64,000 nucleotides of DNA, from assembly GCA_039621445.1 (NCBI GenBank), contig CP154954.1:9819849-9883848 (forward strand), written 5' to 3'. The DNA is from Euglena gracilis. Its lineage: Eukaryota. The position numbers and the translations under genes are program-made. Shown here in pieces: positions 8,657-63,570 of this stretch (position 1 is the first letter of the stretch; every line of letters starts with the position of its first letter). The notes beneath the pieces are model-generated. The model was not told the DNA's origin, made no database searches, and saw only the letters and a program-made list of their open reading frames with translations.

Positions 8657-11600
8657 TCAAACGGCGGCCGAAGCTTTCGTTGCGGCCGGCACTGCTTCTG
8701 GAGGGGCCTGCGACGAAAACAGCAGCCAGACGTTTGTTGTGCGAGGGAGGGGAGGGGCTTTTTAGGTGGGCTTTGCCATCATTGGCGTCCCATACCCACT
8801 GCTTTCGGTTTGTGTGGTATACCAACCTTTCCGGTTCAGTGCTGGGAATGGAGGGATTGCTTCTGTTCCACTCGCTACGTTCCATTGTGGGAGACTGGGA
8901 GCGTACTTCTGTGGCCGCCCCTTGGTCCACGATATTCCAGACCCCTGGGTTCTGGACGTAGAGGTGGTTCATGTCGCGGACCACCTTGGTGCGAATGGCT
9001 GCGAGGGAGAATAGAAGTTCGTTTTTTTTGCACCGCATTTGTTATTAAATAATAAAGTTAAGATATATACATTATTTCTACATATTATGTGACATATTTA
9101 TAATATTATAATATTCCGTTATTATCACATTATTATGATATTATAGTACTATAATGTTGTAAATTGTGTATTATCATAAAAAGTGTGCACTATAAAAGTA
9201 TACACATACTAATACATCACTAAAAGTATACACATACATACATTGTACAGTATACATTAGATTATATATTATGTATTATATCTTACACATTGCACAACTA
9301 ACACGACATATTAATAATTCTTCAATATAATATATGGTACATACATGTACATAAATTACATATTATTTTTATTTGGCAGCAAAGTTCTTGACACCCCCCG
9401 CGGGCCTGGGTCACCAGAGGGGGGGGGGAGTATGGCGGCACCCAGGTCCGACGTTCAGGATCTTTCAGTCGATTCCACCCCCCAACCAGGGCAGACACAG
9501 ACATTTTTAACAAAAAAATTTGGGGGTCGAAAATTGGTGCTTCCGGAAATACGGGAGGAGGTGGTGGGGGGGGTCGACCCCCCCCCCACCCACCACCCTG
9601 GCTGTTTGGCCGATTCGCGTTCTGCCCTGCCCCCCACTGCAGCCCCAACTGTGCCGGATCCGGGCGAAATCCATCGGATTTCCGGAGGATGGGCATTCAT
9701 TTTTTAGGAACATGGTCAGGCTCGGTCAGTTCAGATCGGCGCGCCAAAAAATTGGTCCTGTTTAGGGAAAAAAGTCAGGCTGGAAGCTGGGTCCCTGTTT
9801 CGGAAGACGTTTGCGTCGCATTTTCATTGGAATGTTACCAAAATTCAGCCCAAATTCTGCCTAACTGCACCAGAACGGGGCCTGACTTCTCTGAAAATTC
9901 TGAAAAGGGGGCACCGGTCCGAACCCTAACACTATCTCCAATTAATAACCCCAACTTTCCCTCGAAGTCGGACCCGGGTGTCGCCATACCCCCCCCCTGG
10001 AGATTGTAAATGCCCCCCCAGGGAACGTCAAGAATATTGTATATAATATTATATATACAATATCATATGCAATATCATGCAAAGCGTGTTGACGGACACA
10101 CAAACAGGGGTGGGCGTATATAATGTGCGTAATAAATGTAACACACGCAGCATGTAAAACATATGTTTTACAACATAATGCATACATTTGCCCGGATTTT
10201 TAATTTTACATGAAATTCTATTGTATTAGTGACTCTTCTGAAACCAAGAAGGGGGAAAAAAACAGCACAATCAGATATTCTTCAAGTATTCTTCATAACT
10301 TGCCACAGGAATTCATATTCTCTGGAGAAACAGGGATCGGAAACAGGGAATATCTTAAGGACCCCCCAGGGCAGAACAGGAAGGCCTGGTGGGGGGTCGA
10401 CCCCCCCCCCCAGGAGGTGGGGGTTGACCCCCCCACCCACCACAGCATTTTCACCATTTCTGGGAAAACGGGGAATTTGACCGGGGAAAATCTTTGAGAA
10501 TTTTTTGAGAAATGATAAATAAAAAATACATGATTTTTTGATGGAAAACAAATTTTCTTCACAAAAAAAATCTCAAAAATTGAGGTTAAAAATTGGTAGT
10601 TTTTAGGAGGGGGGTGAAAAAAAACGAAGGTCAAAAAAATTTTCGACCAAAATTTGGCACAGTCAAATTTTAATGACAGTTTTTCCCTTGGATTTTCAAT
10701 AGAATTTTTTGCTTCAAAAACCTCTCAAATTTCGAAATTTTTGAAAGTGTGAAAAAATGGGGGTTTGGGGGTCTTTGGGGGGACTTCCTACATGGGTCCC
10801 AAAATGGGTGCAAAATACACCCAGCACGGAAGGCGCCGGGAAAAATTTGGGAGTCCAAAAACTGGTGCCACCAGAACAACGGGAAGAGGTGGTGGGGGGT
10901 CGACCCCACCACCCTGGCTGTCCGGCCGATTCCGTTCAGCCCTGACCCCTTCCCCGGGTTCCAGCCGTCCGGCTGGAAAAAGGTGCCATCTGGAAAAAAG
11001 GTGCTGGCTGGACGCTTGCTGGGACCCTCCACCCCTGGGAGGTCCCAGCTTCTGGGGTGGAGCCGGCTGGGACCCAAAAAAAAACCAGCTGAACCGCCAA
11101 AATCAGCTGGGATGCATTTTTCAGCTAATTTTTGAGGTGAAAACCCTCAAAAATACAAAAAAAAATCCAGCCAATGCTTTCTCTCTCATACAAGAAGGGT
11201 TGTGGAGGGGGATGGGATAAGCCGCGAGGAAGGGGTGCAAATGGAAGGCATCGCCCCATACCCTCGTGCATGCCGGCGTAGTCCGTCTGGCGGGAGGCCT
11301 GGGTGCTGCGCTGCACCCAGCCGGCGACCCGCAGCATGCCCTGGGCCTCGCGAATGGTCCACCGCAGGGCTCAGAGAGGGGGAAAGGGGGCGTTCCGTCA
11401 TGAACATCGGAAATCTCAGCGACCACTCCCCAATGCCACCACTTTCAATCCAGACTATTTTTGCCTTCGCTGACAGGTTCCCCTCTGTTCCCACCTGTCA
11501 TTTCTCTGATTTCCCACCTTCATTTATGGTACAAAAACAAATACATGAGTTGAATGAAACAGGGGAAAATGAAAACTGAATACAACGTGCAGTATGGGGT

Positions 11601-14600
11601 GGGCTGTAAAACGCACAAGGCAAAAAAAAATGTCGCATTTATTCAAAAACGGCCAATTCATGTGATGTTCGAGAGATACGGCCATACAAAGCACGCAAAT
11701 GAAAAAAAAGTTCCTGGGGTAATACCAAACAGCTCAGGCCAGTCGCCTCTGCAGCCCTATCCATCGATGTCCCATCCACTTTGGCCTGCAACGAGAATTT
11801 CAAAGAAAGACGAGGCCAACCGTGCTCCACCCCCCCCCGATCTTGTCCCAACCTTCCAGCCCGGGAATGGGGCAAAATCCGGGGGAGGGTCAATAAATCC
11901 ATCCCAATAAATCAAATCTCAATAAATCTCCGCCCACCACACCCCACGTTTGGGAAAAGGTGGGGGGGTACGTTGGGCCCGCAGACCGAAACTTTCTGGT
12001 GTATATTTGCCTTTTTCCACACAAAAAATGTGTGCCAAGAGCAGGGGATGCAGCCGAGAGCCGAGAGCACAGTGAGTCTAGCAAGCCGGGCACTAGCCGG
12101 GGAGGCTAGTGCACGTTGGTGTCAAATGCCCAGCAGGACGGCCAGGGATGTGTGGGGGTGGAGGGTGGCAAATGACTCCAAGAGAAAGAACACATCCGTG
12201 TCATCTCCCTCCGTTCCTTTCCTATGCTGTTAAAATGCTGTTGTTCCTATGCAGGAACAAATGCAGGATGCCACAAGGCAGCCAGAGGGGCATCATGGGT
12301 TGGGGGTTAGCGCCACAGGTCAAATGCCTCTGTGTCAGGGCCATAGATAAACTAAGTGGGGCACTTTTTCCCAGGCCCAAACTCACCCACCCACTTCTTT
12401 GAAAACCCACCCAACAACCCCCCCAGGGGTCAACCACCCACCCGCCCGCCCGCCCACCCGCCCACGCAAAATACTGCCAAAATCGGCCGAAAACGCTGAA
12501 AAAAATTCTGCCCCGGCCTTTGGCTGGATAGAAAAACTTGTTTTGTTTGTTGTTTTTTTTTGTGGTGCAACCCTGGGGGGGGGGGCAGACAGAGGCCCCA
12601 ACCCACCCACCCACTCTCGAAAAATCCACCCCCCCAGGGGGTGGGGTCACACAGCTGTTACGTTAATCTATGGTCCGGGCTTGATGGCCAGGCCGGGCGG
12701 CCACCCACCTGGTGGGCCATGATGGACTGCTGCCGCCGGATGACGTTCACCGTCCGGGCGCACTCATCGCTCACCTTGGCATACGCCTCCTGGGCGGAGA
12801 GCCCCTCCGAGCGCAGCACCTCGTACTGCCGGACAAGCCGTTCCACTGCGAGGGGGGAGAGGGGGGGAGACCGCATCCACCGAGACACGCCAAGGGAAGA
12901 TGACCCAGGTCCAACGGAGGCACAGTTCAGGGGGTTTGATCGTTACCAATGGTTTCCCCCCATTGAACTACCATGCTTCCAGAAAAAAAATTTACATTAT
13001 TGAATCCGGCCCACCAGTGAAAAAATTGTGTTAAAAATGCCGTTCAGATATTTTGTGTTGGTGGGGTGTTGGAAAAAGGCTGAATACTCCCTCTGGCCTT
13101 CAATCTATTTAGTTGGACATTCCTCCCACCCTGACGAAAACAGTACTCTTAAGAGGCCAACTTCCACAACAGGTAACTCTGTGTTCATTGATTTGGTTTC
13201 CATCATCAAAAGGACTTGTTGCGTGGCAACTCACCCATCTGAGACAAGTTTACAACTGCTCCAGGAGGAGGCGGGGGAGAGCAGACCGGGCTTCTCCATC
13301 CAGAAGTTGTTGAAGATGCTGGACCCCAGGGTGTGGAGGTGCGGGTGTTCCTGCAACACAAACCCCGGCCAAAAGAGGCAGGGCCCTGCACTGCTGGGTG
13401 GCAATTGCCTGACCCATCAGGCTCTGAACGCAGGAATATGTGTGAACGCGAAACGTTCCATGACCGGCGCATGAGCCAAAATGCAGCAGAGGACACCGGC
13501 CCAGATGAGAAGCTGAACTGGGGCATGGCAAGCCAATGAGGACTTCGCCGAGACCCGGGTCCAACAAAGACTGGACTGAAAGAGGGACGAAAGTTTCACA
13601 GGTACCCCCCCCTTGCCCACCAACCGGGTTCCCACAACCCCCGACCAGTGGGGGGTGGTCATACGCACTCCCTGACATACAACCCCTGACCAGGGGGTGG
13701 CCAGTATACAGGGGTCCAATTTGTGGTGGGCAAAGGGGGGGCAATGAGACAGGTGAGACCCCACACCTTCATCAGCTGTTTGGCGATCGGAGATCGCTTG
13801 GCCTGAACCACCCGGGTCGGGTCCTTGTATGACCGGGGAGGCGGAGGCGACACGCGCATGGCATAATACCTATGTCAAGGGTGCAGTGTGTCGGGTTCAT
13901 AGGTGGTTCAAGCGCGGCTCCCAAAGAAAAATGCGATTAAAAAAAATCCGACCTCACTGCACACAACTTTGCAATTCACAAAACTCAACAAATGTGCACT
14001 TTGTCCACTTATCACGAATCCAATTTAGAATTATGAGAATCCAGGGTTCTTGATTAATGTATCTAATAATATTTTTTCTAATAATATTTTTCTGATTCTC
14101 ATTCCATGGAGAGGATTGATATCGGAGGCTTTCGAGAAAAAAAAATTGCGGAAAATTGCAGAAAAATTGCGGGAATTGCAGGAAAAGTGCGGAAAAATTG
14201 TGGAAAGTGCGATTTTGGGTACTACTACACTTCTACTGGAGGGGACTTCAAAAATTTCATAAATTTGGTCAATTTTGTGAAAATTTTGAAGTCCCCTCGA
14301 GCAGAAGTGCAGTAGTTCCCAAAATCGCACTTTCCACAATTTTTCCGCGCTTTTCCTGCAAATCCCGCAATTTTTCTGCAACTTTCCGCATTTGTAACGT
14401 AGGTGTAAATTTTGAGACATTTTTCACCAACAAAAACGTTCAAAAACATTTTGGGGGCATGCTGATTCTGGAATAATGTAATTTCTTGGGTGAAAAACCA
14501 AACCCAGAAAAAAATTGCCGGAATTTTTGTTCTCAGGCAAAATCTGGCACAGGATGCAGAATTTTTATCAGTCAAAATTATTTCCAGCAGAAATTGAGGG

Positions 14601-15704
14601 AAAACCTAAAAATTGCTATATTTTGTCAAAATTTGTGAAATATGGCAATTTTTGGCAAATTTGAAACAAAATAACAAAAAAACCACCCGGGTGGCCTGGT
14701 GAAACGCTCGAAGAATGGCCAGAACTCACTTCGCGTTCCATTTCAGGTTCATGCGAAAAATTGCGAAGAAAAAGGAGGGAAATTGCGGGGAAATTGCGGA
14801 AAATTGTGGAAATTGCGAAGAATTGCGGAAATTGCGGGAAAATTGTAGAGATCAATTCTCTCCCTGCTTCCAGAGCTTCAGAGGGGGGTGCGACCATACC
14901 ATTGCTTAGCGACCCCTGGGGGGGGAGGGGGGGGCACTGTCCATTCTGATAAAACCAATCAGTCACTTTTCCCAAAAATCCAGTCAGTCACTTTACCCCC
15001 CCCCCGGGGGGATCGGCCACTCTTGAATGATGAGGAGGAGGCAATTTTTGCCAAATTTTTGTCAAAGGGAAAATTTGCCAAAAAGTCTCAAAAAATTTCC
15101 GGTGCCATCGTCGCCAGGCCAGCCACTTTTCCATTTTCGGGCCTACCCCACCCCGGGGGGGGGGGTTCTTGGCCAGAAAACCAGTCAGTCACTATGAAAA
15201 AACCAGTCAGTCACCCCCCCGGGGGTGGGGGGGTGGGACAGGTGTTAACAATGGTATGGGTGCGACCATCCCGGGAAAAAAAGCTCGGCCTGGCCGCCGA
15301 GCATTTCCATGGGTGGGTTCATCGGGCAGAGATGGGGTGGCGTAGGGGAGACACACCATTCTGGGGGCCGGTAGGACCCGGTGGCGACCAGCTTCTTGAG
15401 CTTCCGGTAGTTCTCCCACTGCGACCAGGGCCAGGCCTCTTTTTAAGACCCCCGGGAGGGGGGGGTCCCCCCACCCACCCAGGGTGGCGCGGGACCCCCA
15501 GGGGGGGGACCCCCCCAAAATCAGGCCCGTTAAAGGCAATTATCAAAAATTCGCGCAGAAAAGGTATACCCAGCGCCTCCGGCGCGAGACCCCCCCCCCC
15601 GGCGGGGGGTCCGGACCCACCCATCCCCCGGGGGGGGGGGGGGTCAGGTGACTTAAAAAGAAGCCTGACCAGGGCTTGGCGGGGACCGCCGGGGTGAGCG
15701 GCAT
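8657..15704 (-). CDS. mS23: Mitochondrial small-subunit ribosomal protein mS23 (MRPS23/Rsm25)-like, 9 exons
   Basis: Exons (minus): 15704-15671, 15426-15357, 13869-13767, 13350-13287, 12845-12709, 11785-11763, 11359-11262, 8998-8907, 8707-8657 (TGA), all in frame. Protein: MPLTPAVPAKPWSQWENYRKLKKLVATGSYRPPEWYYAMRVSPPPP...EKPVERLVRQYEVLRSEGLSAQEAYAKV...ASAAV*. It matches the mS23 pattern (LxxxG...PxWYxxxxxxPP; later L...GLSxxEAY). Confidence 0.8.
9487..9629. mobile_element. hAT-like MITE, CAGGGCAGA family
   Basis: TIR CAGGGCAGA/TCTGCCCTG; flanks CCCCCAAC/CCCCCCAC (7/8). Internal sequence shared with 10367-10944 and 30706-31167. Confidence 0.75.
10367..10944. mobile_element. hAT-like MITE, CAGGGCAGA family, apparently nested in another MITE
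   Basis: Ends CAGGGCAGAAC...GTTCAGCCCTG, with the same left and right subterminal sequence as 30706-31167. TSD not clean. Confidence 0.6.
12342..12672. mobile_element. hAT-like MITE, CATAG family, inside mS23 intron 5
   Basis: TIR CATAGATAAAC/GTTAATCTATG; flanks GTCAGGGC/GTCCGGGC (7/8). Homologous to 49911-50239 and ~24810-25326. Confidence 0.8.
14895..15258. mobile_element. hAT-like MITE, CATACCATTG family, inside mS23 GT-AG intron 2
   Basis: TIR CATACCATTG/CAATGGTATG; perfect 8-bp TSD GGTGCGAC; internal CCAGTCAGTCAC subterminal repeats. Confidence 0.88.
15432..15667. mobile_element. hAT-like MITE that forms mS23 intron 1 (intron 15427-15670)
   Basis: 16-bp TIR CAGGCCTCTTTTTAAG/CTTAAAAAGAAGCCTG (one mismatch); perfect TSD ACCAGGGC (15424-15431, 15668-15675); homologous copy at 50598-50865. 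Confidence 0.92.
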
Positions 15705-16399: not shown

Positions 16400-17937
16400 A
16401 TCAGCCTTCTTTTACCAAATCCGGGGGGGGGGGTGGAGGCGGTAACATGTGCTATGGGGTGCCCGCCCCAGCGGGCTACCCCTTCCCAGGGGGAGGTCAG
16501 TTTTGGGCCCCAGCCCCGGCACACCCACGCCACTTTCCCTTTAAAACGGCTGGGGGGGTACCAACACCCGACCCCCCACCTGGGGTCGAAAATGCCCTAC
16601 GCCCTTTGCCTGTCCACACACCCACCCCCTGCAGGGGAGCGACCTTCCCTAAAAGAGGTTGTCGGGGATTCCACAAGCTGCATCCAGAAAGCTACTAGCA
16701 AGGCCCCCTGAGGGGGGGGAGTCTTGAGCGTTCCTCCTCCAGCTGTGGAAATGTTTTTGACGTGCCTTTTTTGTGTAGAAAATTTAAATTGTTCCTAAAA
16801 AAAAGCCAAAAAATGCTTTAAAAATGCAAAAAAAGGTCAATTTGGGCAGGTTATTTGGGGGGGTCAAAATTCCACACACGCACACACGCACACGCACACG
16901 TACACGCACACGCACGCACACACGCACACGCACGCACGCACACACACACAACCCAAGGGGGGGTTAGTTTTGCTGGAAGAAATGAGCCAGCTTTTTCCAA
17001 CCTCCAAAAGGCTCACAAGGAGTCAAAGTCAACCAAAATGTACCTCCCCTTGTTGAAAAGGGAAAGATGGATAAGAACTGGGGGTTGGTGCTCATTTGGC
17101 CAAACCATGCACAAGAACCAGGGGTGGTGCTTGGATAAGGGAGGAGCAACCGGACACAAAAATGTGCTTGCACAAGAAAAAGGAAAATTACCTTTGAGTT
17201 TGTGTGTCTGTTGAAGGACGCAGAGGTTCCTGTAGTATCACAATTTTCGAAATTTCTATCACAAACTACAATTGAATCACAGGAAGAAAACCTTTGAAAA
17301 GAGGGGTGGGAAACAAGGGGAATGGTTCTTGGACAAGGCAGGCATTTTGGAAACATATTCTGGAAGCATTCTTTGTTATGTAGTGTGCACTCTTTGGCAC
17401 AGAAAAATCCCATCGGAGGGATGTGTTAAAAAGAATTGTGTAGAACGGGAGACAGACCGGCAGAGCTGGTTGTGGGAGCCCTTCATTTCTGTGCAATCCC
17501 GAGCTGTAAGGGAAAACAGGGGCACTTTCAAAGCAGAACTGTTGTGATGAGAGGATTGTGGCTTGCCTCTCGGGCCTCGGAGCTGATCCCCCCTGGCCAG
17601 AAATCACAACGAACAGAACGGTACGCACTGTGTCGCAACAGACCACTCCATACACTCCGAAACTGAAAGCCAAATCCTTGAACCACTGTTAAGGGGGTCG
17701 GGTCAAGAAGGGGGTCAAAGGTCAGGCAGCAGAGAGCTGTGGGATGGCCAACACTGCGGGGGGACCGCATTCTGCTGTGGCTTCGGCGGGGGGTCCACAG
17801 GTCAGCGGGCTAATCAGCAGCGCGGGGGAGGGGGGGGGGGGGAAAAGAAGGGAGTCTGAGCCGAACGATTTAGAGGAAAAAAAACAATCCACCGGCCACC
17901 GGAAAACTGGAAAATGTGGGGGAAATGGAAAGAGGTA

Positions 17938-18082
17938 CCCCCCCGGGCAATTGTCACGCGACATTTGGGCAGCACGGAGGGGGGTGACAATTTCCCGGGG
18001 TGACAAATTGGCCGGCACAGCCAGGGGTGACAATTGCCTGGGGGCGTCAATTGCCCGGGCGTCAATTGCCCGGGGGGGGGGG
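17938..18082. mobile_element. TA-flanked MITE (Tc1/mariner-like geometry); related copies at 37072-37551
   Basis: TA|CCCCCCCGGGCAATTG...CAATTGCCCGGGGGGG|TA; internal GGGGTGACAA(A/T)T repeats. Confidence 0.75.
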
Positions 18083-20355
18083 TAAAAAAAACAGAATAAA
18101 AGCCATTTCAGGATGCCAGCAAGGGGTTGGCCAGGAAAACATTTCCCTCACACAACACTTCTGCGTTTGCAGCAATTTCCACAGCAAAGCACTGCTAAAG
18201 GGAGTCAGTTTTGCATACCTACCTCCCCAACCCTGCGAAGAGACAGGTCGGCAGGCACAAGGGTGGGAGACAGGTCCCTGTGAAAGACAGTTTCCTGGGG
18301 ACGACAGATTCCCTGGGGGTACACCCTCAAAAAAAAAACACGACACAACAAAACACAGAATGTTCCAAAATCGAAAAAAAAAACGAAACATAAGAGCATA
18401 AAGCCATGCAGTCTCCACCACACTCGCCACCCACAGGGCTTCAGGAAGTCCTATTCTGCCCTGAGGGTGTTGCAGGATCTCGTTCCGTTCGGCCCCAGGG
18501 AGGAGAGTGGCCAGGGGTTGTGCCTCAAGAAGGCAGCGCAGCGACAGGCCCGGTGAGCCTCACCGGCTGACCCATCCCGGACTTGCAAGCGTAGCAAAGT
18601 GCAGCCCAGCGCGTATCGCCCAGATCCGGAGGACAGGCACGCACAGGGCTCACGGGTGGATTCAAATTCTGCAGCTGGGCCGGGGCTGTGCAAGAACTCA
18701 CCCACCCAGGGGGGAGTCCACCCACCATGGCACCACACCACCCAAGGAAAAATTACTTGGGCGGGGAAAAATTCGTTCTGCGTCTGAAATACCGAAGTAA
18801 AAAGTTGACCTAAAAAATTGGCGCCCCCGGAACTGCAGGAAGGGGTGGGGGGGGGGGAGGCAGGACCCCCCACCCACCACCCATGGGGGTTCAGGAATTC
18901 CCGTGCACCGCTCTTGTATCATCGGCCGGGTAGTTTATATTATTTGGGCATCCAAAATCCAGGGAGGAGGGTATCATTTAAGGGGGATTATTATTTGGAC
19001 ATATCTATCAAACTGAAAAATACCCCCTGAAATGCACATTTTTTCATAATTTCTGAGTTTTGCATATTTCTTTACCTTTATTTCAGGTTGATACGGCCTC
19101 AATTTTTTGGTACCTTTCATATTCGCCAAAATATGCTTTTCAAATCTGCTTCATTGAGGTATTCAAATAAATTTCAACAAATAAATTAAATTGGTTAATT
19201 ATTCAAGTTGAGGATCTTCACATCCCCCACCCCGGCTCCTTGGCCCGAGAGACGTTGGCCCCAACAGGAGGGGGGGGGGGCAACTTCGGGGGGGGGGGGC
19301 ATATTTAACTCAACAGCCAAGGCGAGCCAATGAGCCGCCAAGCCAAAATGCCTCAAAATGGGTGATAGGCCAACTTTGGGGGGGGGGGGGCATGAAGCCG
19401 GGGCATATTGGCTCCAACAGCCCGGGGGTGGGGGGGAAAGAGCCAGGGGGGCAAAGCCGGGGTGCATTGTTTCGGTGAATATTTGGGGGGGGGGGTATAT
19501 TATTCAGGGGGTCAATCATTTGAAGGGTTAATGGAGGACAGGCCTTTTGCATGAGGGGGCAGCTTGAATGTAAGGGGAATGGGCGGGAGAAAGAAGTTCT
19601 TGAAAGGAAAAAGAGGGCCACGACACGTCCTTGTTTGAGAGGCTACCATCACGATTTCAAAACAAATGTCACTTGATGCAGCACAAAGCGAACCTTGAAA
19701 AGTGGTGAAAAAAATGTCATATCAATGTATCAATCATATATGTATCAATCAATATCAATGGCGGCCTTATGGTGGATGAAATGCCTGCCCAAATATGGAT
19801 GCAGAGTTTCTTTCTTTGACAATTTTTGTTTAAAAAGAGCAAAGAAAATTGCATCGCTTTGAGCCAAAAAAAAAACCCAAATCATGTTTCTTCAGATCGT
19901 TCTTCAGCATCCCATGGCTGCTACATGCAACTGAAAGCAATAAGCATCCCAGCTTCCTCCTGGAGAGGATATAGCTTTCAGGATATTTTTAGTTTAAAAA
20001 TCTAGTTAAGTCTTTTTGTCTGATAAATGGCTTGAAAAATACCCTTGGCCAATGTTCACTGCCAGATCAGAGCACACAGTAAGCATCCACCCCAGGGATT
20101 TTCTAAAAGACCCCGGGGGGGGGGGGGGTCCCGCGGTCCTGGACCTGGCTGGTACCCCAAAACACAGGCAAAAAAATCCAAAACTGGCCGGGTTGGCATT
20201 ATTCAGCCAATATTGGGAGGTGAAACCCCAAACACCACTCAAAAATGCCGTTTTGGGCCATTTTCCCCCAATACTGTCGGCGTGTTGCACCAAATTGTTT
20301 TGGTCCGGCCCGGCTTCGGCGGGCTGCCCAAACTTTATTTCGGCGGACCGCTGGG

Positions 20356-20720
20356 CAGGGTTCGATATAAGGACAGGTGGGGGGGGGGTGGTCCGGAACC
20401 CCCCCCCCTGCGGGCCAGGAGGGGGGGGGGCCGGGGGCGGACACACCCCCCCCACCTAAACAGTGGCGCGGTCCGGGTGACCGTAAATTTTTGACCCCCA
20501 AAACGACCAAAAGTGCCATTTTGGGCACTTTTTGGGCAAAAATTGGCCAAAAATGCAAAAAAAATTCGGCGCAAAGCGCCGGAGGAAAAAAATTGACCCT
20601 TTTTTGGGGGGGGGTCCCGGGTACCCCCCCAGGGTCGGTCCGGACCCCCCCTGCGGGCCAGGAGGGGGGGGGGACACCCCCCCACCTAAACCATGTACGC
20701 CCTCCTTATATCAAACCCTG
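20356..20720. mobile_element. hAT-like MITE nested in an older MITE (~20092-20795)
   Basis: 18-bp TIR CAGGGTTCGATATAAGGA/TCCTTATATCAAACCCTG (one mismatch); perfect TSD CCGCTGGG; shorter relative at ~32050-32165. Confidence 0.9.
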
Positions 20721-22549
20721 CCGCTGGGAGCTGCTGGCTGGAAAAAAGCTGGACTCCTCCGGGGGGGGGGGGCAGGATGTCCTCCAGCTTAGCTCCTAAT
20801 CCACCCCATCAGAGGAGAAATCCACACCAAGAACGGTATTTTGTATGAACATAAACTAAAAAAAAAAATCAAATTTTTAGTGAGCCGCCTCAGCATTTTT
20901 TCACCTTTGCCTTTGGATATGAATGGATACTTGAGGCTCTGCGAAGGCCCTGCTGGGCGCATACAAAGACTACATATGGTGTTTTGTCCCCCTCAATTTT
21001 GTTGGTTTCTTTTTAAGTATGCCGAACCATCCATCGCATTGTAGCCATAGTCGCCAGTTAACATAGCAAAGGTTAGGTATATTTGGGGTGCGGTATTTCA
21101 CAAAGCTGGCTTCTGTCAAGACAAAAATGTACTCCAAAAAGTTCAGTTTTTCTTGGGGGGGTTGGTCGATAAAAACACAGGGGAGGAGGGTTATTAACTG
21201 ATTCTCCTGAACTTTGAACGAGAGTCATTGTTTGGGTATTTTTTTGGGAGGGTGCACAATAATGCCTGTGAGCTCTGCGGCAAAGCGATACCAATAATAA
21301 GTATCGCCTGGGTTAAATGGCATGACGAGGAGGACAGAAATCACAAGAATGATGTGGTAATTCCAAACAGCAACAAATGCTTGAGTCATTGCCATGATCA
21401 CAGATATCTCAAGAGTATTGAGGTGGTTATCCATTTGGCCACGCTCTGAATTGCAATTCACGTATTTAATTGAATATAATTCACGTATGGCGTGCGGTGA
21501 ACGGAATGGCATGTGTATGCTGTCATGCTTTGGAGCTTCGGTTCAGATCATTAGAAAATTCGAAAGATTATCCGCGGAGTCTTTTACAAATGACTGTGGG
21601 AACGCTGAATCGTTGCTGGGTAGCATTCGGTGCCCTCTAGGGAAGTCAAACCGAGCGATACCAGAAAGAAAACACTGCAATTGAGAGCACAATAATCGAT
21701 ACCAATGGGGGTGGGCAGAAGGGTGCGCAAGAAGGCACGAGTCCCCTCCTGGAAAAAAAAAGTGCTATGGACGTTTTCTCGCACAACCCCCCCCCCCCCG
21801 GAGTCGACTTACTCACCAACCCAAAACCAGCCAAAAACCATTGAAATTTTTTCAAGAGTTTGGCCTTTGGTCAGGCAAAACTCATCCCACCCCCCCCAGG
21901 TGGGTGGGATGTTGCGGGAACGATTTCAGGCAAGTGACAACGAACCAAACACGATGCCATACACTTTGACCGTATCAAAAAATCTTTGGCTCCTGGGCGC
22001 ATTTGGGTGTTTGTGCCCACTTTCACAAACAAAGCATTTGTGCAAATGTGCAAATGGTCTGTTTGCGCAGTTGCTCAAATGGTATGTTAATGCAATTGTC
22101 TGCACAAATGCGCACAGGAATGATGTGAAAGTGGTTGGTTCAGGTGGTGGATTTGCCGCACTTATGCAAATAATTCAATGTGTTAAATTCCGTGAAATGA
22201 AATGTGACAAAAGCACCCTCCTCACCGAATTTGCACCCGCCGTTGAGCCCGTGAAAAACCAATTTCTTTCACCCCTGAATTGGCAACTCAAGGCCTAATC
22301 CTTGAGGTGAAAAAAGGAGGGAAAAAATGACCTTGAACCCTGGTCGTTTGCCACACCTTCCTTGACCAGTTAAATTATACTATATACTACAACTCGACTT
22401 TGTGGACGCTGTTCCGAATCACCTCCGTTTGACCCCCAACTCCCCGCCAGGCCCGAGTTATTCACGCGCGAAGGGGTCTAAACTGGGTAGGATCGGCCCG
22501 CCTCCCTTTTTAAGCCTCCCCCTTTGGACTCTGACATTTCGGCCAAAAA

Positions 22550-23405
22550 AAATGTCAATTTTCAAAATATCTCCAAAATGAATCAAAATCAAAGGAAATG
22601 TCCGGAGACCTAATTTGAAGCCCTTGGAACGCCCCATCTACTGGTATTTTGATTTCCACGCAACTGTTCGCGTAGCCCGAGATACGGCCGTTTTTCGGCC
22701 GATTTTGGCCATTTTGTACACTTTTTCCACTGGTGGACTTAGCCATTTGGCCGTTTTCGGCCAAAAAAGTCGAAAAAATCGAAAAAATTTTGCCCAAATC
22801 CATGCTGTTTGGCCTCCCGGACCCGGAAAAAGTGTTTTCGAGACGATGATGGCCATCATGACCATGATGGCCATCATGAGCCATGATGGCTATCATGACC
22901 CATGATGGCCATCGTGACCCATGATGGTCATCATGACCCATCATGGCCATCATGACCCTTGATGCGCATCATGACCCATGATGGCCATGATGACCCCTGA
23001 TGGCCATCATGACCAGTGATGCCCATCATGACCCTTGATGCCCATCATGACCTGACGTCATGATAGGGAGTGATAGGGGATAGACTTATTAAGAAAAAGT
23101 CGAAAAATTCAATATTTATAAAAGATATCCAAAATGACGCAAAATCAAAGGAAATGTCCACAGACCTAATTTGAAGTCCTTGGAAGGCCCCATCTACCGT
23201 ATTTTGATTTCCCCGCAACTCCCCGCCTGGCCAGAGATACGGCCGCTTTTTTTTTTGGCCAATTTGGGCCATTTTGTGCACTTTTTCCATTGGTTCAGAC
23301 TTCTGACTTAGCCGTTTTCGGGCAAAAACATCGAGAAAACAATTAAAAAATTTTGCCCAAAACCAGTTTTTTTTGGGCCTCCCGGACCCGAAAAAAGTGT
23401 TTTCG
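22550..23405. repeat. Two ~300-bp direct repeats separated by a (CATGACCCATGATGGCCAT)-like tandem array (~22845-23060); third partial copy ~51400-51570
   Basis: Shared block TCCAAAATGA..CAAAATCAAAGGAAATGTCC..AGACCTAATTTGAAG in both arms. Confidence 0.75.
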
Positions 23406-25930
23406 AGCCGAAAGTGACCGTTTTTTCGACCCCCCCCGGCCCCCCGTTTTGGGACCTGAACCAATGCAATTTGGGTCATTTTCAGGTCAAAAAAAAGTCA
23501 GAAAAAAAACGAAAAACCCTGCCCAAGACCATGTTTTTTGGCCTTCCGGAGCCAAAAAAACCAGTTCATATAGGGCATCAAAAATGCGCGTTTGCGCGCA
23601 TAGTAAGAGCTCAGCACTTGGCCCCAATGGGCCGGGGGACAACTTTGGAGGAGGGGGGGGGCATGTTGGGCCCAACAGCCGGGGGGGGGGGAGCCGTGGG
23701 GCAGGGGGGGGGGGGGCATAACGTTGATGTGGCCAACTTGCCACAGAACTCAACCCGTACTGGCGGGTCCTCCTGTACTCTTTATCCCCAACATCACCAC
23801 AATTTGCAGAGTTCCCTCACAGTCTGCTTCAACTTATATTTTGTTGTGTTGCAAAATCTATTCCTTCTGTGACTATTCAAAAACCTTCCCATGGCTGTTG
23901 CAGGGCTTCAAAAAGCAGTCTAGCCCCCCCCCCCCACCCACCGACCAGGTTCCAACAACCCCATCCAGGGAGGGGGGTCATTCACACCTCCTGACCTGCA
24001 ACCCCCGACCAGCGGGTGGTTGCATGACCAGGTACAAATCCCCTGTATGCATAAAAAATTCGGTCACCCTGGTCGATGATCAATGGGGTGGTCATATGCA
24101 CCCCGTTACCTGCAACAACCCAACCAGGGTATTGGGGGGGGGGGCATCACGGACCTCGATTCACTGTCGTTCCCATTATCCCCCCGGGCCACAGTTGGTA
24201 TTTCAAAGACTGCTTCGGCTGCCGCTTTTTCGTGCTCCTGTGCACAATTGCGCGCATTTTCAAAATTTTATTTCTCGGCATCTGGGTCCAGGTTTTTGAA
24301 CTGCTGGTTACATCCCAGTCTTTGGTATGTGAATTTTCATCATTTTCAAGGGCCAAAAGGGCAAGATTTGGTGCTTTTGGCCTCCGAAACATGACGCCGT
24401 GTTACAAATCTCCCCAGGATGACCCCCCAGGAAATAAGAAATATATATTTCCTGAGTGGCAACTGCCAGCGCCAGGTGGTGTTCAGGAAATAAGATAACA
24501 GGTCCACCCCTTTGCCAGGAAAATGAAAAACTGCTCAAGTTGAACCCCACGTGCATAAAGTTCTGTGCACTCCAGATTATTACTGCTCTCCGTGGGTCAG
24601 CCGCATTCAGAAATGGTATTGCCATCGGTCTTGACACCCTCCATTGACTTATTGTTGCGAGCCACTGCAACGAGGGGGGGGGGGGCACAAAGCACAAGCA
24701 CACAGGGTGGGGCCCCCAGGCGGCCGCACGAGGTCGGTCCCACACCATTGCTCACCAACCCCAGAAGAGGATGGATAACCAGTCTTTCAACTTTTTGAAA
24801 CCCAGTCACCCAGAACACTTAGGGGGTGGGCACTTTTTCCCAGGCCCAAACCCACCCACCCACTTTTGTCGGGCAGGGGGGGGGGGTTGGTGATTCTGGG
24901 GCCGGACCCCCCCCCCTCCAGGGGGTTGGATTTCGGCGCGAATCGCCCAAAATTCTTTGGAGAAATGGTCTTAGACGGTCCGATTTCGGGGGGGGGGGTC
25001 TGCAGATAACACCACATTTAATCTGCACTGTTCCGAATGCAGTGACATTCTGAAACCCACCCCCCCCCCCAGAGGTGGGTGGTCACCCCCCCCCCCCGGG
25101 GTTGACCACCCACCCACCCACCCACCCACCCAAAAACCAGCCAAAATCGGCCAAAAACACTGAAAAAGATTTTCCAGCCCAGCCTTCAGCCGGACAAAAA
25201 CCTGACCCATGGCGCACCGAACCCCCCCAGGGAGGGGGGGCCCCGGGGCCCCAACACACCCACCTACTCTCGAAACCCACCCACCCTCCAGGCGGAGGGG
25301 TCGCACGGGTGTTATTTGAATCTATGATCCAGACCATGGGTTTCTTAAGGACCCCCGGCAGGGTCCTTGGGTCGGCTGGGAAAAAAGGGGCTGCCGGGAA
25401 AAATGCTGCCTGCCCACCCCCCCCGCAGGGGTGGGGTTCCGATCCGCCGGCAGCAGGACCCAGCAGGTGCCCGAAAAATGGCACAAAAAAAATCCAAATC
25501 CAAACAAACAAACAATCCAAACAAACCAAATTTACCTGGGGTGGATTTTTTAGCCAAAACTTTAAGGTGAAGCCCCCCAAAACTCAAAAAGTGCCATTTT
25601 GGGCGGCATTCTTGACCCTTTTCAACAATTTTTCGGCGCTTTGTGCCGAAAATGGTTTTGGTCTAACCTCCCTTTGCCCAACTTCATTTCAACAAGGCCA
25701 GGGGGGGGGGGAAGCTGGGCTGGCTGAAACAGTGGCTGGCTGGACCTCCCTCTCCGAAGGAAGGGTCCTCGCAGCTGTCAGCAACTCTGGCCACTTGGGC
25801 CAAAATTTTTAGAAAACTGTCAGTGCATTGTGATGAGACTCTTTTTTCAGTCCAATCGTGGGTCGGTCAGTAAGCAATGGGATGGCCCGGCCTCCTGCAT
25901 CGAGTGCCTCTGTGGCTGGGATGAGGGGGG

Positions 25931-28900: not shown

Positions 28901-31265
28901 AATCGAAGACAAAGTTGAGGACTCAGGCAGGCCCTCCAAAAATAGGAAGCAAAGAAAAGGTACAGCATGCAGGTCTGGTCTCTTTTTGAACCTTCCGAGT
29001 TTTCCAAAATTCTAAACCTTCCGAAATTTTCAAAAAAAATCACATTGGCAGTCGTCCTAAAATTACCGGTGTCTTCCGCCACACCGTCAGGGGGCCAGGC
29101 GGTACCCGGGCAGCACGACAGGCCGGGCCCACAGCTGGTAGAGCACCAGCAGAAGCAGTGCCACGGAGGGCAGCCCCGAAACGCAGCCCGCCACAGCGAG
29201 CCCCCGGCTGGCGGTGAACAGCGCGTGGCACGTCGGGTTGCCGCCGGAGACCGCCGCCCCTGTCACAGCCCCGCCGGGGGAGGGAGTCGCGATCGGGCAA
29301 TTCTTCTGGACATCACTTCCACTCTTCCAAAAACCAGTCACTCGGCTTTTCCAGAAAATAAGTCAGTCGCTACCCCCTGTGTGCACTACGGCTGTTTTTT
29401 CGGTGCCTTTTATCCCTTCTTCTGGCCTGGCGCTGTTGTTCGCCTCTGGCCTTTTTGTCTGTGTTTGTGGAGGCGGCCGGAGTCGAAGAAACAGCGAAAC
29501 CCATAAAAAACGGATGGATGGAAAGAACAAAGAAACGAGTCTCCGGGAAACAGAGTTTGCGCAAGACAACTAAAAAATCGAAGAAAAAAAAGCTGACGAA
29601 AGTTCAAGGGTTCCCATAAACGGAAACAAACAATAAAAAAATTGGGCAGACAATGCGGGCTAAACTAAGCAGCTCAGTTTTGGGTCCAAATTTGTTTGGT
29701 GCTTCGTGCCAAAACTTGGCCTGACCCCTGACCCCTGTGGAGGGGGCGGATCCGCCCACCCGCTTGGATGACCAGCCTTAAAAAAATCTCTGGATGCAAA
29801 AGGAATGACAATGACAATGAAAAGGAAAACAATAATAATTAAGTACAGTGTAAATGAAACTTACACTGGAAATAAAAGCAGGGGATTCTGACCCATGACC
29901 GACGATTTCAAAGACAGTTTGAGTTCGTTGTCAGCCATCAAACAAACAACTAACCCGCAACGAAAACCAACTCTACAGCTTTGTTTGACTTACAAACACA
30001 ATTCTGAGATGAGGTGCCTCCGGCACAGCGGTCGGTGTCAAACGATCAATGTGTGCAAGTGGGGCCCTGGCCGCGACGTCATGGGACTCGCAGTACGTCG
30101 GCCCATTGGCGTGCTCGATGCACTTCTCCCGCACGCACCGCCGCTCGGGCTCCTGACCAGGGTGTCGAGTGAGCGTTGGTTTTTTGCACGGGTGGTCCGA
30201 CCCCCCGCCCCGCTCACTCTATGCCTGGCTCATGGCCGCCGTGTGTCGACTTCGGGGCCTCGGTCAACTTCTCTTGCAAACGCAATTGTCCCCCCACTGC
30301 AAGCGGTTTTTTTCCGTCTCACATTGATTTTCGAACTGTTGGGAACATTCTGGTTTCAGAAAATGGGTATTTGTTTATTTTGTTTTATTGGTGAAAAAAA
30401 AAACAATTTATTCGTGAAAAATACAAAAGAAGCAAAAAAAAGTGAAATTTCGGGTGACATATTTTTGGATTCATTCCCAGCAGAGCGAAATCAGTTGCCG
30501 GGGACCCAAAAAACCCGTCTGTTCCTGCCCAATATCCAACATGCCGTGACTTTTTTGAAAGTCTCGATTGCCCCCCCCCAAATGGTGGTGCCTCCACGTG
30601 AGTCCACATGAGAGGCCCATTGAACCCCGAGGGCAGCGCTGGGCAGAGGTACACGTACGTCCGCTCAAAGACCGCGGTGTCCTTCCACGACCAGGGGACC
30701 TCCAGCAGGACAGTATGGGAAGGCCTGGTAGGGGGGGTCGACCCCCCCCCACCCAGCACAGCATTCTAGAAAATTTGAAAATCTTTGTACAAAAACAAAA
30801 CGTGAATCATGTTTGTCACAACCTTTGCAGCGACATACGCGATTTACGTGTTCTTCACCACATTCGCGATTGAGATTGTTGTGTGCAATACTGCATTTGA
30901 ATCGCGAATTGTGACATTGTTGTAGACAGTTGTTGATTCACAAAAATCTTGATTTTTATTGCCAAAACAGAAATGTTTTTGAAAACCTAAATGCCTTTGC
31001 ACAGGTATCTTTTTTTAAACAAATCCACCCGGCGCCGAAGGCACCGGGAAAGATTTTTGGGGTCGAAAATTGGTGCTCCCGGAAATACGGGAGGTGGTGG
31101 GGGGTCGTGTGGTCGACCCCTCCCCCACCACCACCCTGGCTGGTTGCCCGATTCCCGGACTGCCCTAGCCACCAGGGTGGCGCCCGCCAGGCCCAGGCCG
31201 AGGACGGCGATGGCAGTCGCCAGGATGTAGAGGTTCCGGGCGGGGTGGGTCATGAACCGACCCAT
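25931..31265 (-). CDS. Claudin/PMP-22/amastin-like tetraspan membrane protein
   Basis: Approximate exons: 31265-31171 (TM1 LYILATAIAVLGLGLAGATLV), 30700-30645 (VPWSWKD...YVYL), 30130-30073 (WEKCIEHANGPTYCESHD), 29260-29093 (NPTCHALFTASRGLAVAGCVSGLPSVALLLLVLY), 28726-28574 (FVCRLAALLVWVGY...YTWGWFF), ~27882-27840 (TFSVWYALLSTVLT), ~27005-26980, ~26010-25931 (FKPGFSDEDDPEGLKVLP*). Four hydrophobic helices and a W...LW..C...C first loop. The 3' junctions are less certain. Confidence 0.7.
27093..27424. mobile_element. hAT-like MITE, CATAC family
   Basis: Ends CATACAAT/ATTGTCTG; perfect TSD CATCCAAC; CCAGTCAGTC repeats as in 14895-15258. Confidence 0.85.
30706..31167. mobile_element. hAT-like MITE forming intron 1 (30701-31170) of the claudin-like gene
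   Basis: Ends CAGGACAGT/ACTGCCCTA; flanks ACCTCCAG/GCCACCAG (6/8); in-frame join ATLV|VPWSW. Confidence 0.8.

Positions 31266-33851: not shown

Positions 33852-63570
<29,719 letters not shown>

Follow-up and report, generated by a model that had tools for sequence, protein, structure and literature searches.

Nonconventional introns constitute more than half of the introns of Euglena; in Euglena agilis they account for 71.8% of the total, with the responsible enzyme described as unknown (PMC12501133). Euglenid introns of this type (Milanowski et al. 2014, 2016; Nomura et al. 2025) are characterized by borders other than GT-AG, CAG at positions +4 to +6 and CTG at positions -8 to -6, ends that pair with each other, a downstream exon beginning with a purine, junction repeats that make the borders 'slidable', and precise removal. 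Their origin from MITEs (miniature inverted-repeat transposable elements) was proposed in 2014 on the basis of inverted repeats (PMC3935182). In 2016, a newly gained intron in the gapC gene of E. agilis was found to carry eight-nucleotide direct repeats, which were read as a trace of double-strand-break repair (PMC4770533). A 2024 review labelled the CAG/CTG ends as terminal inverted repeats (TIRs) and the junction repeats as similar to target-site duplications (TSDs) (PMC11282704), and a 2025 paper fixed the spacers at 3 and 5-6 nt, setting aside as 'slidable' the 84.4% of introns with junction repeats (PMC12501133). For E. gracilis, border-variable nonconventional introns number 11,656 of 28,337 (PMC11170887). 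Here we describe a 236-bp MITE-like element that interrupts the gene of the mitoribosomal protein mS23 in E. gracilis. The window, i.e., the whole stretch of DNA analysed, is 64 kb of contig CP154954.1 and was the search space for copies of the element; all coordinates are window positions. The mS23 intron displays all the features listed above, and the nonconventional intron is at the same time a MITE.

Introners of Micromonas and Aureococcus, in work attributed to Huff et al. in 2016, are said to be transposon-derived spliceosomal introns. They reportedly resemble the mS23 case in that the insertion of a DNA transposon creates an intron instantly, with the target duplication taking part in the splice geometry; they reportedly differ in having GT-AG borders and being removed by the spliceosome, whereas the signal of the mS23 element consists of paired inverted ends and fixed spacers, and none of its 10 possible registers is GT-AG. 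The non-canonical introns of Amoebophrya, Polarella, and Fritillaria are likewise MITE-like, with inverted ends and short border duplications, but the lineages are unrelated, and the duplications of Amoebophrya are 3-5 nt long compared with 8 nt for the mS23 element (PMC11282704). A further comparable case is gapC intron 4 of E. agilis strain ACOI 323, which is also nonconventional, has eight-nucleotide junction repeats, and is absent from other strains; it differs in species and gene, was read as break repair, and is presented in the available text of that report without an element family (PMC4770533). With respect to euglenid nonconventional introns as a whole, the mS23 intron belongs to a repeated element family with a full 8-bp duplication, a relation that the available texts of the earlier reports give as a hypothesis only.

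Introns of this kind are known, and the idea has for the most part been published. An earlier reading of this DNA, made from the sequence alone (hereafter the sequence-only reading), held that a transposon origin had been proposed in general terms; the proposal does exist, while its extent was understated, as the 8-nt repeat of 2016 (PMC4770533) and the TIR and TSD labels of 2024 (PMC11282704) demonstrate. Literature on nonconventional introns and TSDs yielded only the 2024 review as being on point, and a search joining euglenid, hAT, transposase, and intron returned no paper. In the available texts, neither a concrete element family nor hAT is named behind euglenid introns, and no prior statement was found that the 3- and 5-nt spacers add up to one 8-bp duplication, although an 8-nt mode may appear in the supplements (junction tables, and the sliding-distance figure of PMC12501133).

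The element and its surroundings read on the minus strand as GCCAA-GCCCTGGT-CAGGCTTCTTTTTAAG...(204 nt)...CTTAAAAAGAGGCCTG-GCCCTGGT-CGCAGTGG. Its ends are CAGGC... and ...GCCTG, and the terminal 16 nt are complementary at 15/16 positions, while a repeat finder run on the window reported inverted arms of 24 nt at 83% and a direct repeat spaced by 244 nt. The flanking repeats match at 8/8 positions; a ninth position seems to match only since the downstream copy happens to be followed by the same C with which the element begins. Thus, the size of 236 bp, the 16-bp TIRs, and the perfect 8-bp TSD claimed by the sequence-only reading were all recovered, the TIRs with the single mismatch mentioned above. 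The interior of the element is non-coding, with stops in the reading frames and an abundance of G and C runs, and its 3' arm contains an in-frame TAA six codons upstream of exon 2. In the predicted RNA fold, the ends are paired in a 19-bp terminal stem in both the minimum free energy and centroid structures; the fold energy is -167.7 kcal/mol (z -3.45), and none of 200 shuffled sequences was as stable.

The element interrupts codons 10-13 of mS23. RNA evidence was taken from two runs of raw RNA reads that bear the same species label and from one transcript contig run, with 15 listed joints inspected and 842 more not listed. The mS23 gene is encoded on the minus strand and includes at least seven RNA joints (8706>8906, 8998>11262, 11358>11762, 11784>12708, 12845>13287, 13349>13766, and 13867>15355), of which, among those listed, six have GT..AG borders on the minus strand and the remaining one is of the nonconventional type. 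When the RNA-read exons were joined by a script and the element was deleted together with one repeat copy, a 223-aa open reading frame (ORF) starting from the ATG at 15704 was obtained. A protein search with one internal exon (45 aa) gave a single match, the 223-aa protein P0001 (EG_transcript_26412 in EukProt), which is identical to the predicted ORF at 223/223 residues; the EG_transcript naming is that of transcripts of the E. gracilis Z1 transcriptome (PMC6366073). The 'mS23' label of the gene proved right by homology, since mS23 chains of kinetoplastid mitoribosomes are matched by P0001 (7aor_p, E 1.9e-18) in an alignment that starts at residue 11 and runs ungapped over W12|S13; a Pfam search with P0001 found no mS23 family and only weak GntR and PSP matches. 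Two euglenid orthologues, P0002 and P0003 (the latter from the Ploeotia vitrea transcriptome), keep W-S-Q at the element site with no gap, and these three residues are invariant across the aligned kinetoplastid mS23 and euglenid orthologues. Since the orthologues are ungapped over W12|S13, the removal is scar-free relative to the ancestral gene. The codons said to be restored, AKPW|SQW, were thus rebuilt in agreement with both the transcriptome-derived protein and the orthologues. Furthermore, the conserved core of mS23 (W-x-x-x-+-+-+-LV-TG-Y-PPEWY) is encoded by exon 2, which lacks an in-frame ATG; given the TAA within the element, it is translatable only after joining to the upstream ATG. 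The mature mRNA lacks the element, exactly as though no insertion had taken place.

One of the orthologues deserves a separate comment. P0002 (63% identity) was called on genomic DNA, an ENA contig of 523,671 bp, and is colinear with the spliced E. gracilis mRNA over ~130 aa, so these introns, the one at the element site among them, may all be missing from its organism. Addition of a spliced leader at cgcag|tggg, with the element residing in the outron, was considered and ruled out: the conserved mS23 exon would then be startless, and the transcriptome protein starts upstream.

Ten cut positions yield one identical mRNA, and GT-AG, GC-AG, or AT-AC borders were observed in none of them (0/10). 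The absence of a GT donor, as claimed by the sequence-only reading, holds in the sense that there is no GT-AG option and that the single register starting with GT ends with TG. Register 5, GGT-CAG...CTG-GCCCT|G, fits the nonconventional code N3-CDG/CH'G-N5-6|R with a purine first in the exon. This code (5'-N3CDG-/-CH'GN5-6|R) was set by knock-in experiments in E. gracilis, in which it was sufficient for splicing at a foreign site and the acceptor-side spacer tolerated 5-6 nt (PMC12501133). The exact cut register in the mS23 intron is probably the one given by this code. The 5|3 split of the repeat, previously taken to be visible at this locus, is imported from the published code, as the 10 registers are equivalent.

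The mS23 element has relatives in the window. BLAST revealed a full-length relative at 50598-50865 with 78% identity over 268 aligned columns, as well as partial copies; the homologous copy noticed before is thus genuine, its 8-bp flanks carrying less weight since GTGGGTGG sits in a GTGG repeat (long GTC/GCT/GGT triplet and GTGG repeats at 50440-50600 adjoin this copy and weaken its flanking-repeat evidence). In total, three full-length members of the family, plus fragments, were found within 64 kb. Besides the mS23 element, the window has four CAGG...CCTG elements of 268-365 bp (its two full-length relatives and those at 20356-20720 and 57335-57634), each with perfect 8-bp flanks, and the end sequences form at least three families: CAGGC-T-rich-TAAG, CAGGGTTCGATATAAG, and CAGGGCGGTCCTT. 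The relatives are located in non-coding DNA or inside larger introns.

The length of the flanking repeats was assessed by two scans. A stricter scan of CAG...CTG pairs 40-3000 bp apart with an inverted-repeat match of at least 12/14 returned 22 pairs; the compared flanking 8-mers match at 8/8 positions in 4 of them and at 4/8 or fewer in the other 18, and seven offset controls gave 0 or 1 perfect match. A looser scan (at least 11/14, spacing up to 5000 bp, flanks compared at several k) returned 254 pairs, with perfect flanks for five at k=8, none at k=6, 7, 9, 10, or 11, and one at k=12, the latter being the copy inside the GTGG repeat; 20 block-shuffled windows gave no perfect flanks. Without the inverted-repeat filter the signal is weak, perfect 8-mers occurring at 9 of 32,842 CAG..CTG pairs compared with 1-7 in 18 offset controls. 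Looser thresholds also brought up a perfect 8-mer at 59346-59713 and seven further pairs at 7/8, including three short elements (9487-9629, 23364-23521, and 40458-40535). The genome thus carries several CAGG...CCTG element families that make 8-bp duplications, and the mS23 element is one of them. The window has 44 ORFs of 170 aa or more, and Pfam detected no transposase in the 10 of them that were searched; in metagenome contigs a two-TIR pattern had no matches, whereas a one-TIR pattern hit two loci, both unrelated on inspection. Coordinates of the features are collected in Table 1.

Table 1. The mS23 element, its exons, and related elements in the 64-kb window of E. gracilis
Feature	Position	Strand	Remarks
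mS23 coding exon 1	15671..15704	-	ATG 15704-15702; MPLTPAVPAKP and first base of W
8-bp repeat GCCCTGGT, upstream copy	15668..15675	-	published register: 5 nt exon, 3 nt intron
Intron as placed by the published code (GGT-CAG...CTG-GCCCT | G)	15427..15670	-	244 nt; 9 other registers give the same mRNA; code from PMC12501133
MITE-like element, core of the nonconventional intron	15432..15667	-	236 bp; window sequence and family alignment
5' terminal inverted repeat CAGGCTTCTTTTTAAG	15652..15667	-	CAG is intron +4..+6 in code register; stem in fold
3' terminal inverted repeat CTTAAAAAGAGGCCTG	15432..15447	-	CTG is intron -8..-6 in code register; stem in fold
8-bp repeat GCCCTGGT, downstream copy	15424..15431	-	published register: 5 nt intron, 3 nt exon
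mS23 coding exon 2	15357..15426	-	rest of W, then SQWENYRKLKKLVATGSYRPPEW; ends at GT donor used in RNA reads (joint 13867>15355)
Full-length relative	50598..50865	-	flanked on both sides by GTGGGTGG; non-coding DNA
Third family member, TIR CAGGCGTTTTTTTAAG	55294..55598		perfect 8-bp repeat GTTGGAAC; shares internal sequence
CAGGG...CCCTG element	20356..20720		perfect 8-bp repeat CCGCTGGG; inside larger nonconventional intron
CAGGGCGG...CCGCCCTG element	57335..57634		8-bp repeat GTGGTGGT
Candidate second case	59346..59713	-	368 bp; perfect 8-bp repeat (CATCCAGG on minus strand); splits IQ-motif-like ORF

Taken together, a MITE insertion in mS23 is probably removed as a nonconventional intron, with the codons restored. 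According to the mechanism we propose, a non-autonomous DNA transposon of the CAGGC...GCCTG family would have inserted in codons 10-13, duplicating the 8 bp GCCCTGGT; its inverted ends would pair in the pre-mRNA, and the nonconventional splicing system, if it follows the published code, would cut 3 nt ahead of the CAG and 5 nt past the CTG. With these spacers, the intron takes in 3 nt from the end of the upstream repeat and 5 nt from the start of the downstream one, so that the mRNA keeps one 8-mer. In other words, 3 + 5 equals the 8-bp duplication, therefore the element plus exactly one repeat copy is removed and the ancestral frame is restored, both cuts being placed identically, at 5|6, within the duplicated 8-mer. 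The spliced mRNA would be expected to read ...GCCAAGCCCTGGTCGCAGTGG..., and the junction of an intron circle to read ...CCTGGCCCT joined to GGTCAGG.... Nonconventional introns are reportedly released as circular RNA with joined ends, an observation attributed to Guminska in 2021; no back-joint occurs at the mS23 element site among the joints listed. Cuts at the same position would account for the pyrimidine|purine junction shared by both ends of nonconventional introns (PMC11282704), and would likewise account for the purine found both at the intron start and at the start of the downstream exon (PMC4770533). The scar-free geometry can be soundly and usefully inferred, and the match between 3 + 5 and 8 is probably the reason why insertions in exons are tolerated.

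Extension of this scheme to the whole class is more tentative. It is possible that most euglenid nonconventional introns descend from CAG...CTG MITEs making 8-bp duplications, the 3-nt and 5-nt spacers being the halves of the duplication and both cuts being made at the same position of the 8-mer, so that every new exon insertion would immediately vanish from the mRNA, leaving no scar; the cutting system might then be shaped by this transposon family, or even be derived from its machinery.

A number of observations weigh against our interpretation in either its general or its local form. Two full-length relatives are located in non-coding DNA, hence being a MITE does not alone make an intron, and the best-matching pair of copies is only 78% identical, so the family is not obviously young. 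Among the four other nonconventional introns nearby, one (18635>21279) has 3+6 spacers and one does not fit the code, while the three that do fit, among the joints listed, retain in-register repeat matches of only 2/8, 2/8, and 1/8, with no 8-bp repeat kept. Loss of the repeats is expected if the intron-side halves drift, and it counts as no support; the claim of the sequence-only reading that TSD geometry explains the splice signal in general finds no backing in these introns. Some observations speak for a coincidence, in which the MITE is spliced and the spacers are a property of the cutting enzyme with no causal or selective tie to the duplication length: three older introns whose register can be set have no 8-bp repeat in register, one intron has 3+6 spacers, the acceptor-side spacer tolerates 5-6 nt in knock-ins (PMC12501133), and the window holds a single confirmed case. 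We nonetheless consider coincidence somewhat unlikely. With any other sum of the spacers, an insertion in an exon would result in an indel in the mRNA, the five perfect flanking repeats of the window all have a length of exactly 8 bp, the newly gained gapC intron of E. agilis has 8-nt direct repeats (PMC4770533), and the pyrimidine|purine junction at both ends (PMC11282704) is as expected from two cuts at the same position in a duplicated 8-mer.

On the local side, removal of the element from the mRNA rests on the transcriptome-derived protein and on read depth, with no direct spanning read: a joint across the element is not among the joints listed, having been seen neither as present nor as absent, and the X1 transcript contig ends ~20 nt before the 8-bp repeat (15411-15431). 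The element could accordingly be unspliced, the clean mRNA originating from an allele or a second gene copy without the insertion; if transcribed, such a source would give the same protein, the transcriptome protein may derive from another strain, and presence or absence of nonconventional introns between strains is documented in E. agilis (PMC4770533). We regard this source as quite improbable. The element fits every part of the code that is sufficient in knock-ins (PMC12501133), and the protein is identical to the mS23 locus over its entire length. In addition, RNA depth over the element looks low beside the well-covered exon: the bin 14938-15604 of run X21 has ~10x average depth, approximately the contribution expected from the 75-nt exon part by itself, given the 79 reads at its joint, which by this rough estimate leaves little RNA for the 173 nt of the element in the bin. 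No loose end at 15431 was found among those listed. Removal by RNA splicing in mS23 thus appears the probable route.

The end of the X1 contig may reflect branching of the graph or the use of another AG acceptor (gggag|aac); X21 raw reads reach at least 15427, beyond the point where the contig stops.

Origin of the flanking repeat from double-strand-break repair at intron gain, instead of transposition, is the reading given in 2016 for the 8-nt repeat of the new gapC intron (PMC4770533), but for the mS23 element it is very improbable, as related copies with inverted ends occupy unrelated, non-genic sites and each has a different repeat of the constant length of 8 bp, a transposase signature. 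Least probable of all is removal of the element by the ordinary spliceosome at non-canonical sites: one register starts with GT, and such removal of MITE-derived non-canonical introns has been proposed for Fritillaria (PMC11282704), but the register in question ends with TG, no polypyrimidine tract or AG is found at the 3' end, and the neighbouring conventional introns of mS23 are all GT..AG.

A multi-copy element that is both a transposon and a working intron makes the MITE hypothesis of 2014 testable, and the mS23 element provides a concrete example for the older idea of transposon-derived non-GT-AG introns in Euglena. The ends of the family offer a handle for finding the autonomous transposon. 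Given the 8-bp duplication, the 'slidable' junction repeats left aside in genome papers are predicted to have a mode of 8, the identical sequence context of both cuts constrains models of the nuclease, and the scheme as a whole explains how the genome tolerates transposon insertions in coding exons.

MITEs of the hAT superfamily make 8-bp target duplications and have short inverted ends starting with CAG; their terminal consensus is YARNG and their target preference is nTnnnnAn, and 8-bp duplications are made by other superfamilies as well. The CAGGC ends match YARNG at 4/5 positions and those of the CAGGG families at 5/5, while one of six repeats, namely GTTGGAAC/GTTCCAAC, fits the target pattern. 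Membership of the mS23 element in hAT is thus putative, the features that fit being the 8-bp duplication and the CAG ends.

The element at 59346-59713 is a candidate for a second exon insertion. One of its 11 registers fits the nonconventional code, and another is GC..AG. No transcript support was found for it; a homologous-protein search with 40 aa of the split ORF gave 34 candidates, none of them significant, a search of protein representatives with the ORF gave no matches, and the Pfam IQ match is below cutoff (E 0.046).

Among the other nonconventional introns nearby, 11358>11762 fits N3-TAG..CTG-N5, 21361>21621, read on the minus strand, conforms to N3-CAG..CTG-N5|A, 18635>21279 agrees with N3-CAG..CTG-N6, and no fit to the code was obtained for 21711>24645. 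Two of them (11359-11761 and 21362-21620) have no relatives in the window. The region 17658-24735 gives rise to a spliced transcript with four non-GT-AG joints, one of which (17833>18502) carries 10 extra letters between its sides. Its strand is probably minus, judging only from the fit to the code, and the joined exons contain stops in all six frames, so the transcript may be an untranslated region or a non-coding RNA.

The 365-bp element located inside one of these introns may also exist in an empty-site form. Contigs of DNA run X20 join 20349 to 20723, skipping 373 bp, i.e., the 365-bp element plus 8, with a shorter side of only 23 letters and repeat-like depth. The joints 20349>20723 and 11013>20723 have the 23-letter side in common, and the flanks have no paralogue in the window; with so short a side the evidence is too weak, and they were not counted as an empty site.

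Two further kinds of short repeats were observed. A 40-bp CAG...CTG stretch at 39163-39202 has perfect 8-bp flanks (tgcccagg) and may be either an intron-like element of very small size or a duplication that arose by chance. The copies at 9487-9629, 10841-10944, and 31049-31166 constitute a separate small repeat family with a conserved 3' end (...CTGCCCTG), the first of them having a 7/8 flanking repeat and residing inside a conventional mS23 intron.

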